From Psilocybe cubensis (Eukaryota): a DNA stretch of 64,000 nt. The stretch lies in NCBI GenBank assembly GCA_017499595.2, contig CM039004.1, positions 1,054,001-1,118,000 of the forward strand, given 5' to 3'. The notes under the pieces are model-generated. The model was not told where the DNA came from. It made no database searches and saw only the letters and a list, made by a program, of their open reading frames with translations. Made by a program: the position numbers and the translations under genes. This document shows positions 1 to 43,526 of the stretch, piece after piece. Every line of letters starts with the position of its first letter. The first letter of the stretch is position 1.

Positions 1-1221
1 GTTGGAAATGACCGTAAACGCGAAATTGAACAGCTGCTTTCTGATAATAAAATCCGGATTGTCATCTGTACAGAGGCATTAGGAATGGTGCGTCTGTATG
101 ATTTAATTTTACCAAATCTAATAACATACCTCAGGGATGCGACCTCCGCAATATTGCTCGAGTTGTCCTATGGGGGTTGCCTGAAACCTTCTGTTCTCTT
201 GTACAGAGAATTGGTCGTGCAGGAAGAGACCTCAATACAGATGCTGAGGCAATACTAATTGTTAATCCAGGAATAGCAAAGGGTGAAATTACTGAGGATG
301 CATTTAACGATACTATTGTCATGGCGGCTGCTGAAGGCGAGGCATTAAATCGGCCTATTAGTGAACAAGAACTGGATCGCTCTGTCGAAGCACTAGATGA
401 AGAAGGAGTCCGAATTGCAAATGCAGCTGAGTCAGATAACGAAGACGCTGATGCTACGTTTGCGATGACACCTTCTGTACGGCACTCCAAAGGCAAACGG
501 AAAGTGCAAACAAAAACAAACACTCACCTGCAAGAAACTCGGGCCTTGCTAAATTTTGTGATCACAAAAGAGTGCCGCCGAAAGATCTGGGATGCATTCT
601 TTAATAATGCAAGCAAACGTGAGTGTCAAGTTTCTTTTATTCTAATATTGTATAGTACTTACCTGAACATTAGTTCAGCTTATATATCAGGAAACGACAA
701 CGTATAACCCCACTACACATACTTCACGGTGCTGTGACAACTGTCAGCCTCATTTATTTCCATTGGACAATATAGTGCGACATCAACTCACCAGCTTAAA
801 GCGTGGACGCAAGAAAAAAATGCCAGAAGAAGAACAGAACTATATTCGAAATAAACTCTTCAAGTTCCGAGAGCATAATCTGATGGACGCGGTTTACAGC
901 AACCTATCAAGCTTTTCAAGTAGTATGATTATCTCCGATGAGGTAATTAATAAGATTGCAAGCTGTGGCGAGCTAATCAGAGATTATTCTCACCTCCGTC
1001 AAATTGTGCGATGGGGATTTGGCCATGATTCAAGCATTGATGGACCTAACAAGTGGGGCTTAATGCTTATGGAGGAACTAGAGAATATCAACAATGCTCT
1101 TGAGAACAGGCGAGTAGAAAGTTCAGAAAAGGAGAAGTCGAAGGACTCAACAAGTGTGCCTGCACCGTATGCTTCGATATCATTTGCAGATATATTGACA
1201 CCAGAAAACTTTTGTGATTAG
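1..1221 (+). CDS. RecQ-like SF2 helicase, 3' part (HELICc + RecQ-type Zn-binding region), truncated by window start
   Basis: Spliced translation gives IVICTEALGM|GCDLRNIARVVLWGLP...LVQRIGRAGRD (helicase motifs V/VI), then ECRRKIWDAFFNN...RCCDNCQP (RecQ Zn-binding signature). Introns about 88-134 and 619-673; stop TAG at 1219-1221. Confidence 0.85.
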
Positions 1222-4189
1222 TTGTATATACTTAACTCGTTTGCGATGCCCTGTACAATTGATACATAATAATCACCATCTGCACCTATAGGAAACTCTT
1301 CGTTGTCCATCAACAAATCCTCTATACTCATACAAAGATCTGAACCAATATCAATATCATTTCCGTCCTCAAACACACCTTTGTCATTCGCATTTTCGTA
1401 TACCGACTCTTCTGATAAATTTGATGATTTAGTCCCTCGATGCGTAGTCTTAATCTTTGCATACTTGAAGTTATGATATGCTGACGGTTTGTTTGCATAT
1501 TCCGAGCCGGCTTGAAGAAGGTCACGCGCTTCAACACAGTCGTCATTATTTTCACGTTTTGGTGTATAGGTTTGCAATGATTGAGCTTCCAAATGGGTAC
1601 GCAAGGTGGCAATGTCTGTTGCTGTTGTCGGAGTGGTGTGGCTAATGCTATTAAAAGGAGTGGAGTACTCCTTGTGCATGCGCCGCATCACATCGCGTAA
1701 TGCAAAAATGCAAACGGAGACCATTGAAAGCCACTGCCAACTGCGGTTTGACCCTTTGGCACTATAAATAATCTCATAACAAAAATCAGCCCATGATACA
1801 CAGAATACTATTGACTGACTGACAACCGACTCACTTTTAGCCAGAAGTTTTGATGCTCCTGCAATAGATCCATTTCTTTGAACCCATCCACTTTGCCACT
1901 GAGATTTGCAAGCCAGTTGTTGAGCCATGCGTCTCTGACAAAAACACAGTTAGCGAGGCGATATTGAAAATCACAACAACAACTTACCGAAGTGTCGAAT
2001 TCATCTTTTTTAGACGCATAACAATGCCAAACAATGCATCTGCGTATTTTGGCGTTTTCCCCGTCCCACGAAAGGCCAACATTAAATGTGTGCAAAGATC
2101 TAATACAACACCAACATCACCCTTTTTGATCGCATATTTGAGCTGGCGAAGATAAAGCGCATCACGATTGAAAAGAATGATGTTTTCGAGAGGAATATCT
2201 CGCATTTTGGTGGCCCGAAGTGATTGCACACGGCGTCCGGAGCAGTTTTTGTCCAAAACCAGCTGAGAAACCCTACGGACATCATCAACACTCGTAACAC
2301 CGGTCTTAATCCAGGTTTCTAGGCTTTCGTAGCCACAGTGAATTCGGAAAGCATCGAGTATGTTGGCCGGCAGTGTTAAATCAAGAATAAGCTCGTAAAC
2401 CGGACGGAAAGGGGCTGGCGACTTTACTTTCCATCCTGCAGAGATTGGTTTCCGAGCAAGCAAAGTATTGACTTTCCATAATGACCACGGCGATCGTGCA
2501 TTTGGTTTTCCCCAAAATTCATTTGCAATCATACGAGCGTGTGAGAATTTGAGGTGAAGAAGACCCTCCTGACCCTCTGTAAAGCGGCCAATGTTGTCAA
2601 GAAAGTTTGTGTCGTCACGCCGAATAGCCGATGCCTTCCAAAGTGCAACATTAGCGAGATGTAATATTACTATATAAACTGGCTTACCTTGTCCAATAGC
2701 GACAAGCTCAGTTGATCTCCAGCACAAATAATAATACCATGTCGTTTGACATCTTCCTCGGACATTTGAAGTGTCGTTTGCAAGATTGTAGAAAGAACAT
2801 TGAGTGTTCCGTCCAGACTCGACTCATCGATATGCATTGCCGGTAATGGGTACTGACGTGTTTGATGCACTGGAATTTGATGCACTGTTGGTGCAGGAAG
2901 AATGTGTGCGAATAATTTACTGCGTAGATCTGGAAATGCGTTATACAGAATGTCCTCGATGTGCCAAAGTTGCCCATTTTGCACACGGAAAGCCTCCTCG
3001 CAACTTGGCAGCAAATCGAGACCATCAAACTCTAAGACTTGAGGGCGTACCACACGCGGCGGTTTGAGGGACGTTGGAAGAGACCCAACCTCTACTCCAA
3101 ACAGCGGGACAAGAGTGGCAGTTGTACCATTATCGAAATGATCCTTTGCATCGTGGCGTTGTTGACTGACACGGAAGGCGAAATTGATGTTATCCCAAAT
3201 GATCATAAATGTAACCAGGTGGGCAATAGTCCGTGTTTCCTCAAGCAACTCGTCGCTCAGCTTTTTCAGCTTTTCAACAGCTTGTGAATACGAAAGTGTG
3301 AGTCCAGCGTGATTCAGAACATTAAAAAGCGACTTCGAGGTGCCGCAGGCCAATAGATATAGGCACATTGAAGTCTGAAAGTCGGTTGCATGCTCGCTCC
3401 GAGACTTGGCAAGCATACAAAAAACTGTAGCCAAAATCTGGTAAATTGTAAGCAACAAACATATGTTGGAACATAAAGTCAACACACCAGGTCATGTTGT
3501 TTGTGTTTGTACTTCTCCGACGAGGGTGGAAAGGCAACGACACGGAAATGGTTGTACAAAGTAGGTGCAATTCGTTCGGCATCCTGCAAGAAACCCGATA
3601 GAGAAAAGTGGGCAAGAGTTTCAAACATTGACTGGCCGCGGGATGGCGTGAATTCCGCAGCCAGAGCATCGGCCTCCATTGCAGCAAGCTGTCGGGTTGT
3701 TGACAGTGCCCAGTCAGTGGCTACAACTCGCTCACGGGCCATTATGTTGTCCAAGAGTGATTTGCCATGGTTCACAAGCATGCGTGAAACCTGCGATGAG
3801 CGAACTGGGTGTGTGGTTCTGAGAAGCGCGGACATAAAGGAGTGAAGGGTGTACCCGCCGTCATTGAGTAACCCCAGGTAATGGTCAATGTCCTCGTTTT
3901 CTTGCTGTTGTTGTGATAGAACCTTCACCTCTTTCTCCTTTCTACGTCTCTCCTTCTGCTCCTGTATATCCGACTGCGCTTTTCGCTTTTTGGTTTGGGG
4001 AGTAAGGCCGTCAACAAAAGAAATGGGTGTTGAATTGGATTTGAAAGGCGTGAGAGGCTCTCTTGACGGCGTGGTTTGACTGGGTGTCAGTTTTGGCTGG
4101 CGAAAGACAATCGTGGAAGCAGGGCGCCGTAACGGTGTTTTGTTTTCGTCGTTTGTACATTTGCGAGGTGTGCGAGTTGTGTATGACAT
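1218..4189 (-). CDS. DUF6589-type protein, putative DNA transposase (about 5 exons, apparently intact)
   Basis: ORFs 3479-4189, 2670-3485, 1984-2727, part of 1808-2095 and 1218-1928 join in frame through GT-AG introns. Motifs WDNINF...HFDNGTTAT, AGDQLS, GLLHLK and DLLQEHQN resemble the DUF6589 family. Confidence 0.75.
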
Positions 4190-4357
4190 AGTTGAGGAGA
4201 GTCTTTCAATCAGTCATGCGTCATTCAACACGGACGCGACGGGCGATACGCGCAGGCTTGGTATCACATGGTAAATCTCACGTGAGACTTTTATTACCAT
4301 TTTTATCGAAAAAGTGCCAAGAATCATTCTCATGTACTCGCTCACGGCTAAACCGTA

Positions 4358-4487
4358 CCAGTCTATATAGGTGAAATAGCTGGCGCCCGTCCCTCCTAGT
4401 ATATCCAGATAAATTTCATCACATAATTTCAACTGACTAATACTCGGAGGCCACATGTGTAAGCTAGCTATCACCTATAGAGACTGG
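4358..4487. repeat. 130-bp imperfect inverted repeat (hairpin)
   Basis: Left arm CCAGTCTATATAGGTGAAATAGCTGG...CTCCTAGTATATCCAGATAAATT; reverse complement of right arm CCAGTCTCTATAGGTGATAGCTAG...CTCCGAGTATTAGTCAGTTGAAATT; loop TCATCACAT at 4416-4424. Confidence 0.8.
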
Positions 4488-7400
4488 GTTCGAGTCTACT
4501 TCTCAGGCATATTCTACAATATCACTCTGAGATCTTGGCGTTGAATAATTTTTGGTCAGGCTATTATCTGCTAGGCTCTGGTAGGTCAAGTAGAGGAATT
4601 CACAGAGCGTAATATCTAATATCACTCATATGTTAAGCATAGAATAAAATTTGGACTTTTACTAATGTCCTCGGCCTCAATCGAACAGTGCTAATTAGGT
4701 AGAATTGAAAAACATGCGCTTGATTTTTCGCGGAGTTACGAACGTCAGCGAGCAACTGGCCGCCGACGGATAAATACGGACTGGGACTCTAATTAAGTAT
4801 GAGGCGACAAGATTGACAGCAAATAAAACCATCGAACGCCTGAATTGGAGAATCTTAGAGCATATGGGATCCAAAAGTCCGTTATTAAAATAACTTTGCT
4901 TTCAACATAGTACGTATCTCGAGGCGTATTCACTGATGCCATGACATCGGCATTGTGGACATAAAACTGTAAAATGGAGACCTTTCTCTGGACCCAGAAC
5001 TATGGAACGAGTGCTGATTTTTACGCTGTGCAAGCTCTCCCAGAGTAATCGTACGCGTAAGTTTTGTACCCCTGTAATGCTGTAAAACAGACATAGGTTT
5101 CGGCCGTCGGTGATACTTTCTTATCACAGTTTGTCGTATCTGAATATGTTTAAACTTCAGCATAGTCTGGATTTTATCACAGTCACTGGTGGGCAAGTGA
5201 TAGGATAAACAATAGCATGTCTGTCTGTCAATAACTATCACGGCAATTCACTTGGGAGAGTTGTCGACTGTGACCTCAGCGCGCTTGAAGCAAATAATCG
5301 AGCATCCTGAAAAGATATATGACCTCACAAGGTGCTGGCGCATTTGCCACATGCACATGGTGTAATGAGCTGAGGCGAAATAATTGATCGTGCTAGATAT
5401 AAAGCCGATATACTGTAGACCTTGGCTAATCTTGTGGCCAGTCTCGTGAGCGGACACAAGCCCCTGTACCAGACAAGTTAGAACCTGTGATAGTAGTTAT
5501 TAACGGGGCGGGGTATCAGTAGAGGTTTTTATCTCACCCCACTCACCCCATAGAGAAGGGGACTTGAAATGTGGGATATTTCTTATTTGAGGTGGACAGA
5601 CTTAAGTATACCATGTGGATTCTGATACTGAGCAAGCCTGGAAAGCTCTAAGCGGTGGAGTGTGGGTCAAAGGTTTGCTCATTCCGCGGTTCCGGACCAA
5701 AAAAAAAAACCGGGGATGTCGGTCTATTCTGCTTTCATTGTTTAAGAAGGTATTCATTATCGATTAACCATACAGACCAAAAGAGGCAAATGGACTGCGA
5801 GAATTCATCTTGATGGACAAAATAGACTCTGCAGCCACGTTATTTGCCAAGCCGGCGATCATTTTCGTTAAGTCCTGGAAGAGTCTTTGCAATTCAAAGA
5901 CCCATTAACACCGCAGGAAATCCAGCGAAAGCCGATGAAAGTTCATCTCAGATCACTTGTGAGTCTCTCAATTTGTCAAATTTCCGGATTCTTGGGATGT
6001 TGAAGGTAGTGAAACCCATTCATCTTATCACGACAACATCTGGTAGTAAACATAGCGGCATTCAGTATGACATTATGCTGGAATGGTAAACACTGCAGAT
6101 ATGTAACAGAGAGAGCAGCTCACGCCCTACAATTTTTTGCACATGTACGTGGTAAAATCTTATAAGTTTGAGTCATGTCAATGAACTCGTGCTCAAGTAT
6201 AGCACTGTACTCAGTGCAAATATGCAGCTTTTGTATCGTTGACGTCGTTTCACTTGAGCTACCCAAGTTTGCTAGATCTAGTGGTGCTTGTTCCATTAAC
6301 CATCCTAATTGTCTGTTCATTTACCCGGGATGAGCATACATGAGTATAATATTAACACTGACTTTGTTCCACGCATTCTTTACTAGGCGAGAGTGCAACA
6401 GTGGACTAGAAATAGAAAATTGCTAACTAATATATTTACATATCTGTTTTACCAGGGTAAAATCATGTAATCTTTTGAAGGATTTGAATCTTCTAAACAT
6501 AATTTAGATAGGTTTTTAGATCTTGTACTTCTATCCCTCAATATTCATTAAAAATGTCCTATTCTCTGTATAGTTCTTAGAAGGCATTCCGATCTCCACC
6601 AAGAAGTTTGTTTGAGTTTAAGTTTCGGGTTTGAATCTTCTGTCATGAATTGTTCTCTTTTTTTTAGTGCAGTCTTGATCTTCATATTTCTTCGAGTGCT
6701 TACACATTGTTATCAAATATCGTGAATCTTTGCAAGACGCGTCTTAGGTTAGACGCGTCGCGGTGTCCTTTCCGTCACGTGCATCAATTCTCGCGGAGCT
6801 GATTGGGGACACCCAACAATTTTATCAAGTTGACTTCAACCACAACGATTCTGGCCGAGACTAGCAAACACACCATTCATTAATTCCTTCGCCCAATCTT
6901 GTGCACGTATAAATCTATACTGGTATGCTCCTAAAGTCATGTTTAACTTCTGAAACCTCTGATCATCAATTTTATTATTCGTTCTATTTGATTCCTATAT
7001 ATACTCTCAAGAAATAGGAGTGCAGGCTCAACCTCCATAATCAAGAGAAAAATATCTTTTCTGAGCTAAGGATTGAATTCTCACTACTCGCGCAACAAAT
7101 TGCATCTTGACATATTCGAGAGACTATTTTTTTGGTTTCTGAACAGGTGAAGCACACTGTTATGCGCCTTCCGTTGAACTTATTCTAATGGACTCTGCGT
7201 ATTTTTATATCGAGGTGTTATCACAACTGCGAAACCTTCCACAAGTACTGGATAACGCCACCGAATCTCACGGTGAGCGCGTATTCATTGGCGTCAGGAA
7301 TAACACAGGGAGTTGTGAGATCACGAGCACAATTCTATCTTGACTCTAATTATTTCTGGCTGTGGACTGTTGGTTAATTTAACCTAAACAATTCACCTTT

Positions 7401-7602
7401 TCCGGGTACTCAACTCCCGGATGCTTCGCCCGACTCAAGACACTTTCTCAGCCTTGTTACAAACGGAGTCAATAGTCGGGGAACATCCATCATTCGACAA
7501 CTGACCCAACAACTGGCCCATTTTTATAGATACAACTTCACTATTTAATACCAAGTTGTGCCATTGACTGTGGTTCTCTTCCCTGGGTGTCTCTGGTTCT
7601 CA

Positions 7603-9042
7603 ATGTCTCTCTCACCATACCGCGGTCTTCCTCCAGAGCTCTTAGACAGGCTCTTTGATGAACTAAAAGTCAATTCTCGAGGCAACAAATCATACAGGAG
7701 AGACTCGTCCTTGAATCGGGCACTACGATCATGCCTCTTTGTTTCCAAATCCTTCAGACATCGAGCTCTCCGTATACTCTTTCGGCACGTCCACATTACC
7801 AATGGTTCTACAGAACTAGGATGCCACCGTGTGGGCCTTTTGCGCGGGTTGATTTCGCCGCCTTCAAACATACAACTCGAAGGCATTGGGCAATATATTG
7901 AGAGAGTATCCATAGCCTTCCGGACACACCACAAAGTCTCGATTTTTTCGTCGCCTTTGGAACATTATAATCGGATAAAGAAGTTCCTAGGGGATCAGGA
8001 CTTGATTTACATAATCCGGCGCCTACACGGAGACGGATATGGTATCAAGGAGCTGGAACTGTCTCTTCTTATAACGCGTGCTGGCAGGGGCTCCTGTGGA
8101 CTGAGATGGGATGAGCTCGACCGACAGTTTCGCCTCGCTCTCTGGGACCTGATTCAGTCACCTCATTTAAATTACCTTTGGATATCCGACATCCACCACA
8201 TTCCTCTCACACTCCTCGATAAATCACACGTTGAATATCTTCGTCATCACCAGTCTATTCTCGGGCAGCATATGTCCTTGTTCTCCCACTCGGCGCAGGA
8301 GCTACCCTACCCCATATTAGAGGTTTGCTTTAACAGTCATTCGGGCTCACATCGATCCAACCGGCCGTCTAATAGTCCCTTCCAAAACCTGAAGACATAT
8401 GCGTCACTCAGCAATGGGCCCGAACAGCTAAGCCTGACATGGGACGTCATCAACTCAGGTGCACAGTCCCTCGAAGCCGTCTCGATTGAAAATTATGGTC
8501 AGTTGATCAAAGCTCGACGTTTTGTCTGTTACGTGATCAGATAATCACTGACCTTCCAATCTAATCCAGGGAAATTTTCTGTCCCTCCTATGGCACTTAC
8601 CCTGGATCGTCTTGTGAATTTAACCTACCTATCATACTCTCAACGCCATATCCCATGGTTTACGCCAGAAAACTATGACCAGAATATCGGAAAACTTTCC
8701 CAGTTCCTAATAACAAAAGCACCGATGAAACACCTTGAACGCATCGATCTCGAACTCCAATGTCATGTAGCGGGCGTTCCGGATCCGTCGTTCGATGCCG
8801 AAACGGTCGCTCAATGGCGGCACTTTGATCATGTATTTTCTGGGCCTCAATATCCAGCTTTACAATATCTTTTTGTCAAGATCTTTGTTGAAATTATCCT
8901 GGAATCGATCTCGGATGATTTTGACGTGAATATTTTCACCGATTTGGCGACTTTGGAGTTGGAGCGCTGCTTCGTCCAGTTATCTACGAGAGACAAAACA
9001 GTCTTCAAAGTCGATGTGGGAGCTTCTGTAGAGGTCGTATAG
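7603..9042 (+). CDS. F-box-like domain protein of an agaric-expanded family (2 exons)
   Basis: N-terminal LPPELLDRLFDEL...LRSCLFVSKSFRHRALRILFR; intron 8498-8569; C-terminal W..FD..FSGPQYPAL motif. Confidence 0.7.
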
Positions 9043-43439: not shown

Positions 43440-43526
43440 GGCCGACTAGCTCAGTTGGTTAGAGCGTCGTGCTAATACCGCTTACGTAATACGCGAAGGT
43501 CTTGGGTTCGACCCCCACGTTGGCCA
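43440..43526 (+). tRNA. tRNA-Ile (AAT) with 13-nt intron (43478-43490)
   Basis: Acceptor GGCCGAC/GTTGGCC+A; D-arm TAGCTCAGTTGGTTAGAGC; anticodon arm TCGTG-CTAATA[intron]A-CGCGA; T-loop GGTTCGACCC; T-runs just downstream. Confidence 0.95.

Follow-up and report, generated by a model that had tools for sequence, protein, structure and literature searches.

Academ elements are DNA transposons that, according to Muszewska et al. (PMC5751038), occur in few copies in most fungal taxa and had no Pfam match when that survey was made. Two lineages of the superfamily are relevant here: according to PMC10045372, AcademH is characterized by a helicase gene and target duplications of 9 or 10 base pairs (bp), whereas AcademX is characterized by a nuclease and duplications of 3-4 bp. 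PMC10799480 reports AcademH as low-copy in Basidiomycota, Ascomycota, and Mucoromycota. The present analysis concerns a stretch of 64,000 nucleotides (nt) from Psilocybe cubensis (GenBank assembly GCA_017499595.2, contig CM039004.1, positions 1,054,001 to 1,118,000 of the forward strand), referred to as the window, whose positions 1-4498 are read as the right-hand 4.5 kilobases (kb) of an autonomous, recently active cut-and-paste DNA transposon of about 5.9 kb, belonging to the AcademH lineage of the Academ superfamily, with a probability of roughly 0.85. The transposon nature of the element is considerably more certain than its membership in Academ or AcademH. This kind of element is already known as AcademH, and the new part is the function assigned to the protein family DUF6589 together with its link to Academ.

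The transposase gene occupies window positions 1218-4189 on the minus strand and is defined by a splice model, Pfam matches, conservation, structure prediction, and motifs. It starts with an ATG at 4189 and comprises five exons (4189-3488, 3437-2688, 2634-1988, 1934-1835, and 1772-1218) separated by GT..AG introns of 50, 53, 53, and 62 nt, encoding 917 amino acids (aa) with no internal stop codon. In a Pfam search, exons 2-5 match DUF6589 (PF20231) with expectation values (E) from 3.8e-44 to 3.4e-08; it is the sole family matched by the five exons, with no Kyakuja-Dileera-Zisupton (KDZ) family and no other transposase family among the hits. The 917-aa model equals the annotated P. cubensis protein P0001 across the first 864/865 residues, and the difference is confined to the C-terminus. 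The public annotation of P0001 (865 aa) adds an extra intron and finishes in ...ENANDKV, in the region of window positions 1218-1390. Reading through 1218-1390 yields 917 aa with an acidic tail (EDLL.D.EEFP) that is common to the paralogues P0002, P0010, and P0018; judged from these sequences, the annotation of P0001 probably stops too early, and the longer reading retains the conserved tail.

A search with exon 3 returned 102 DUF6589 proteins, of which the named ones are all from Agaricomycetes by species name, and which include a 69%-identical paralogue on the same contig; P0001 and P0002, likewise on one contig, are about 57% identical. Across 56 family members, the WDN, GDQ, GxxH, and QEHxN motifs are nearly invariant and D316, D475, and E726 are each at least 90% conserved, and these three residues, with H511 in addition, are proposed as the candidate catalytic residues. 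As leads only, a protein atlas searched with the DUF6589 core gave DUF6589 clusters plus one unnamed cluster scoring 0.92 (55 proteins, mostly Mucoromycota), and the same atlas with the DUF6589 clusters excluded gave no cluster at 0.9 or above; the Mucoromycota cluster, if real, would carry the family past Basidiomycota, as reported for AcademH.

For P0001, an AlphaFold prediction that drew on 56 relatives reached a predicted local distance difference test score (pLDDT) of 85.3 and a predicted template modelling score (pTM) of 0.78. The model begins with a disordered N-terminus and a helical region (75-308), continues from 309 as a beta-alpha core that is interrupted at about 536-705 by an insertion made of helices only, and closes with a helix at 721-738. 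In this model, D316 of the WDN motif lies inside the first strand (311-322), D475 of the GDQ motif just past the fourth strand (470-474), and E726 of the QEHxN motif on the helix 721-738, which is the arrangement that defines DDE enzymes of the RNase H-like type, with the first acidic residue on strand 1, the second following strand 4, and the third on a helix further along. The best 43 structural matches to the model are, every one, RNase H-fold enzymes, the closest being the Hermes and P element transposases, and a family-profile sequence search against solved structures gave nothing better than E 0.12. The DUF6589 protein is thus predicted to be an RNase H-like DDE transposase whose core is split by a helical insertion domain. 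The first-pass annotation, made from the letters of the window, had pointed to the same four motifs and proposed an RNase H-fold DDE transposase, and both the conservation of the motifs and the structural matches bear this out.

The second gene of the element, a helicase gene, is convergent with the first. Its 3' part lies at window positions 1-1221 on the plus strand, with exons 1-87, 135-618, and 674-1218 and a stop codon at 1219-1221 according to a splice model derived from the sequence; the window start cuts the gene, so that 372 aa fall inside the window and the 5' part lies to the left. The exon inside the window matches Helicase_C and RecQ_Zn_bind, both below the Pfam cut-offs. A search with the helicase exon found just four longer relatives. 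The relatives P0103-P0106 carry DEAD and Helicase_C domains (above cut-offs in P0103 and P0105), with RecQ_Zn_bind just sub-threshold at 22.9 against a cut-off of 25. The best solved relatives of P0105 are RecQ (2.7e-33), WRN (2e-32), RECQ5, RECQ1, and BLM, within a range of 1e-33 to 1e-25, and the next group, YprA, follows at 8e-10. A helicase core of superfamily 2 is therefore combined with a zinc-binding module, the latter near-threshold, in proteins nearest to RecQ, and the element helicase is placed by these sequence comparisons in the RecQ family. The stop codons of the two genes overlap (TAA at 1218-1220 on the minus strand, TAG at 1219-1221 on the plus strand), and therefore the 3' untranslated regions overlap fully; the convergent transcripts could yield double-stranded RNA and attract silencing.

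The association of the two genes was surveyed in 66 metagenome loci encoding DUF6589 (designated by L numbers), which were searched with the helicases. Loci were counted as informative if they contained the DUF6589 3' end and at least 500 nt downstream, which left 28 loci that are not all independent, being partly copies of one family. In 27 of these 28, the helicase is the next gene after DUF6589, on the opposite strand and 7-534 nt away; among all 66 loci, a helicase match occurs in 32, and same-strand cases number 0. Both genes sit between the inverted repeats in complete copies, and the pair is strictly kept across copies that are just 35-65% identical. The identities of transposase and helicase segments correlate (r 0.86 over 66 pairs from 12 loci), a figure that is descriptive only given the relatedness of the loci. 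Internally deleted derivatives, in which a truncated DUF6589 abuts a truncated helicase, are found at L001, L016, L011, L048/L062, and L064. A co-folding prediction of helicase P0103 with the C-terminal part of a transposase (P0018, residues 745-902) scored 0.00 with the fold of the partner uncertain, which gives no answer and says nothing either way. The first-pass annotation had described two apparently intact, spliced, tail-to-tail genes: both are present and the DUF6589 gene is intact, while the helicase is represented in the window by its 3' part. Its further suggestion that the helicase is part of the element rather than a host gene, for which it named the recurrence of the two genes in the same orientation as a check, agrees with the 27 loci. 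As a separate observation, L045 and L059 together hold another copy of the L035 family, divided between the two contigs at the position corresponding to L035:3353. The sequence on either side of the split is unrelated, and the transposase gene of this copy probably received a nested insertion.

The ends of the element were defined by comparing copies, as the point where similarity stops. L035 breaks from L045 at L035:941 and from L059 at L035:6788, L033 breaks from L011 at 5722/3821, and L023 and L024, which are 99.6% identical, break at 989/222 with differing flanks. The ends start with 5'-TAGRCTCGA followed by CCAGYC, giving termini of the form TAGRCTCG..CGAGYCTA. The 8-mer TAGRCTCG has 24 forward matches, of which those in 20 loci are located 142-302 nt upstream of the first DUF6589 match; its complement has 11 reverse matches, of which those in 7 loci are located 134-465 nt past the helicase start; and TAGTCTCG variants occur at 5 further helicase-side ends; the flanks outside the terminal motif are mutually unrelated in the related copies. 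The terminal inverted repeats are imperfect and about 80-150 nt long, as in L035 (943-1089 with 6785-6645), and are also present in L044 and L024. Two complete relatives, L035 (5843 bp) and L044 (5894 bp), are bordered by perfect 9-bp target duplications, ATTGTCGTG and AGTCTGGAC, respectively, and cross-contig 9-bp duplications are found for L045 with L059 (ATTTTTTTG) and for L023 with L024 (GCGGCTCTC).

In the window, the 5' leader of the transposase gene and the transposase-side end of the element extend over 4190-4498 on the minus strand, as indicated by comparison with related ends and by the break at 4498|4499 in two sequencing runs, X6 and X12, described below. Read inward, this end is TAGACTCGAACCCAGTCTCTATAGGTGA, with the terminus at 4498. 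The conserved terminal motif at 4482-4498 (minus strand; inward 5'-TAGACTCGAACCCAGTC) is unique in the 64-kb window and recurs at the ends of related copies, and the terminal portion of about 125 nt (4374-4498, minus strand) constitutes the inverted-repeat region, the only part matched by X12 reads of other elements. The end of a mobile DNA element given as 4490 in the first-pass annotation thus lies 8 nt from the terminus. A palindrome links this end to a position further inside: its outer arm (4471-4487) overlaps the terminal motif and its inner arm (4358-4374) is an inverted copy of terminal positions 12-28, so that a terminal stretch is paired with an inverted inner copy 125 nt inside. The arms measure 17 nt, are 94% complementary, and stand 96 nt apart. 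Because about 0.002 such arm pairs would be expected by chance within 150 nt in a 4.9-kb stretch, by our own estimate, and because the same terminal and inner CCAGYC..GRCTGG arrangement recurs in L035, L044, L008, L020, and L038, the palindrome is not fortuitous; the long palindrome noticed earlier is thus real and recurrent, but short. The 9 bp adjoining the terminus (4499-4507, CTTCTCAGG) are expected to be the target duplication, as predicted from related copies and from the empty-site junction at 4499. A candidate tRNA T-arm, GGTTCGAGTC near 4488, was rejected, since ARAGORN gives no tRNA there and the sequence corresponds to the terminal motif.

These ends bear on the proposal of the first-pass annotation that the locus forms one terminus of a KDZ- or Plavaka-type element, large in size and carrying cargo. 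Agaricomycetes commonly contain elements of these types (PMC12730594), and a preprint on a stripe-rust pangenome names DUF6589, alongside Tet-like dioxygenase domains, among those showing enrichment in pathogenic fungi. The element is, however, compact and bounded at 5.8-5.9 kb, with two genes only and no cargo, and no KDZ domain is matched in Pfam. Its 9-bp duplications and TAGRCTCG..CGAGYCTA termini fit neither the 8-bp duplications of Zisupton nor the 2-3-bp duplications of Plavaka, whose termini are TGT..ACA or CATCA..TGATG and whose proteins have C(2)C and H(3-4)H motifs (PMC12730594). With the DNA to the right of 4498 also present in strains that are free of the element, a large cargo-bearing element is the least probable of the readings weighed here and can be set at a negligible level.

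Direct evidence of mobility comes from 13 sequencing runs with coded labels, four of which (X6, X7, X8, and X12) were compared with window positions 1-9000; nine runs contain 0.93-0.98 of the sampled words of that segment. In X6, an element contig of 5943 nt at a depth of 163.1 has 0 differences to window positions 1-4498, ends exactly at 4498, and reaches 1445 nt left of the window, and the length of the element is therefore about 5.9 kb. A flank contig of the same run, at a depth of 42.4, spans 4499-9000 with 13 substitutions and some insertions or deletions and runs leftwards into non-element DNA, and other contigs join the terminus to different flanks; the depth of the element is about 3.8 times that of the flank. 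In X12, the raw reads give a depth of 0 over most of 1-4200 and of about 14-26 per strand from 4501, and the same non-element junction before 4499 is present in 30 reads. X7 and X8 contain only short, low-depth pieces of the element and are uninformative on habitat or strain. The site is occupied in the strain of the window and empty in X6 and X12. X6 has the element elsewhere, at about four times the flank depth, and the element sequence varies less from strain to strain than the adjoining host DNA. The data point to recent movement, and with identical copies at different sites and the site empty in other strains, the element appears to be mobile now in P. cubensis.

Two further observations were made in these runs. 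In X12, where the body of the element is missing, some reads still align to the last 125 nt of the element, their similarity stopping precisely at 4374, and 18 reads have one continuation in common, which suggests non-autonomous elements, or another family, sharing the terminal repeat. In addition, pieces of 35-38 nt inside both genes (726-760 and 2803-2840) match other X6 contigs and about 27 X12 reads per side, with 4-5 differences.

The same data allow the locus to be weighed as a pair of ordinary or domesticated host genes that are immobile now, for instance a subtelomeric RecQ-like helicase of the telomere-linked type and its neighbor. RecQ-like genes are known at fungal chromosome ends, both genes have intact reading frames, most genomes contain few copies of the family, and its paralogues diverged long ago, as seen from the identity between P0001 and P0002. 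Host genes of this kind would nevertheless be very unlikely to have terminal inverted repeats and target duplications in their copies, near-identical copies in different flanks, internally deleted derivatives, a depth about 3.8 times that of the flank, and a site that is empty in two runs, and this explanation is accordingly given very little weight, although old individual copies in other genomes could have been domesticated. The shared ends, the 9-bp duplications in copies, and the empty site in other strains, which the first-pass annotation had named as the features to look for, were all found, and the locus proved to be multi-copy, with an empty site and an RNase H-like core, rather than single-copy without empty sites or lacking such a core.

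The assignment to Academ rests on a comparison of the DUF6589 protein with the RNase_H_Academ profile in the supplement of PMC5751038, of whose 465 positions 159 (1-40, 143-245, and 450-465) were compared by eye. Five motif contexts correspond: fDNwD of Academ (3-6) with WDNlN of DUF6589 (315-319, including D316), yvPiirDS (151-158) with YPLPAMHIDES (431-440), vvltGDQpl (186-194) with IIICAGDQL (469-477, including D475), GffH (220-223) with GLLH (508-511, including H511), and DealE (450-454) with DLLQE (722-726, including E726). They occur in the same order and at similar spacing, with D3-D191-H223-E454 of Academ opposite 316-475-511-726 of DUF6589, in this unscored comparison by eye. Within Academ, the assignment to AcademH is made because of the partner helicase and the 9-bp duplications: a helicase gene stands beside the transposase inside the element in the informative loci given above, and duplications in the 9-10-bp range were found in L035, L044, and the two contig pairs.

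An alternative is that the element is a two-gene inverted-repeat transposon of a superfamily of its own, in which the RecQ-like helicase and the 9-bp stagger were acquired separately from those of Academ. This would be in keeping with the entry for DUF6589 in Pfam, which assigns it no function and showed no link to a clan, and with the best E of 0.12 in the solved-structure profile search. The agreement of the five motif contexts in order and spacing argues against it, as do the presence of both features that separate AcademH from AcademX, namely the helicase gene and the 9-10-bp duplications (PMC10045372), and the reported low-copy occurrence of Academ in most fungal taxa (PMC5751038); a separate superfamily is considered improbable, at a level that still deserves attention.

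Several points weigh against the assignment of the element to AcademH or against parts of the evidence for it. The Academ likeness is limited to short motif contexts, with profile positions 16-40, for example, showing no obvious alignment, and the motif match is an unscored, by-eye comparison over about a third of one profile. The definition of AcademH is credited to Kojima (2020, Mob DNA 11:15), and its traits are taken here from papers that cite it. An alignment search for inverted repeats found none in L014, L021, and L038; L005, a complete contig, has no target duplication; and the two flanks of L024 itself differ, which is explained as a chimeric assembly of near-identical copies. L053, the lone exception among the 28 informative loci, has no helicase downstream of DUF6589. 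The left end of the window copy, with its inverted repeat and the left CTTCTCAGG, falls outside the window, and the empty site in X6 is known from assembled contigs, raw reads being from X12 only and the run labels being coded. In the literature, a search on the name DUF6589 found no printed link between DUF6589 and Academ, and no details on the element ends were found in PMC12210899 and PMC8290104.

On the AcademH reading, the element would work through two convergent genes, a DDE transposase (DUF6589) and a RecQ-family helicase, which are read inward from the element ends. The transposase would bind the repeated CCAGYC/GRCTGG sites in both ends and cut by means of D316, D475, and E726, after which the ends would be joined to a target opened by staggered cuts 9 bp apart. 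The helicase may act in this process by unwinding the ends or the target, or it may promote repair of the donor gap, in which the element is restored by copying from a sister or homologue. RecQ/BLM helicases promote gap-repair copying after P element excision. Repair of the donor gap by the element helicase would preserve copies and, on failure, would give internal deletions of the type seen. It is also conceivable, as a tentative proposal that is more doubtful than probable, that transposition requires the helicase, which would then belong to the transposition machinery instead of simply being carried along. It could be loaded at the target or at the ends, whose CCAGYC..GRCTGG pairs are able to form hairpins, and melt the 9 bp between staggered cuts, or else it could drive donor-gap copying. 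The conservation of the gene pair and the reported association of helicases with long duplications are compatible with an obligatory helicase but are no proof of it. If true, it would mean that helicase-dependent DDE transposons exist, with an effectively replicative outcome.

The DNA to the right of 4498 is present in strains without the element and is therefore host DNA. A Pfam scan found no match there until about 9.9 kb, so that the gene-poor stretch reported in the first-pass annotation exists but lies outside the element. The first gene-like feature in this flank consists of two adjoining open frames (331 and 165 aa) at 7549-9042 on the plus strand, with an F-box-like start, LPPELLDRLFDEL, and no Pfam match. 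From about 9.9 kb onwards, host housekeeping genes follow, including those for ATP synthase b, a mitochondrial carrier, RNase H2 subunit C, Rpb7, VPS28, laccase, and amidase. A tRNA-Ile gene (AAT) of 87 nt, a length that allows an intron, is located at 43440-43526 on the plus strand between the Rpb7-like and VPS28-like genes.

DUF6589 is the label of many hypothetical proteins in mushroom-forming and rust fungi, and an Academ-type reading makes them recognizable as transposon genes and guards against mistaking such genes for host genes or virulence factors. What is gained is a set of defined ends for this fungal lineage of a little-studied kind of element, in addition to a function for DUF6589. 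As a small natural element with two genes and defined ends, it offers a system for studying a transposon-encoded RecQ helicase and might also serve for insertional mutagenesis of Agaricales. The structural model, moreover, would put Academ-type transposases structurally next to the hAT and P element enzymes.

Among known systems, hAT elements (Hermes) and P elements share the RNase H-like fold with the DUF6589 protein. In hAT transposases, a CxxH motif follows the second D and the C-terminus carries the hAT dimerisation domain, and the target duplications of hAT elements are 8 bp long. DUF6589 likewise has a conserved H after the second D, but it has no sequence-level similarity to either group in the Pfam and solved-structure searches, Dimer_Tnp_hAT is not matched at E up to 0.01, the GTP-binding insertion is not recognized, the duplications are 9 bp rather than 8 bp, and a partner helicase is present; the resemblance to hAT is thus one of fold alone. 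Helitrons are also eukaryotic DNA transposons with their own helicase, but they fuse an HUH nuclease to a Pif1-type helicase and have neither inverted repeats nor target duplications, whereas the window element pairs a DDE transposase with a separate RecQ-type helicase. KDZ and Plavaka elements are DNA transposons of the same fungi (Agaricomycetes) that are able to carry extra genes, and they differ in transposase family, duplication length, and termini, the window element being without a TET/JBP gene or cargo. AcademX would share the transposase superfamily, judged by the motif comparison, but its XPG nuclease is fused to the transposase and its duplications are 3-4 bp, compared with a RecQ helicase partner and 9 bp here. 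For AcademH, the families were compared by description only, and the literature covered makes no mention of the TAGRCTCGA terminus, of convergent genes, or of an element active in Psilocybe cubensis. In common with AcademH are a DDE transposase with a separate helicase gene in one element, terminal inverted repeats, 9-bp duplications, and low copy number in Basidiomycota, and the DN, GDQ, GxxH, and DxxxE contexts of DUF6589 match the Academ profile in the comparison by eye.

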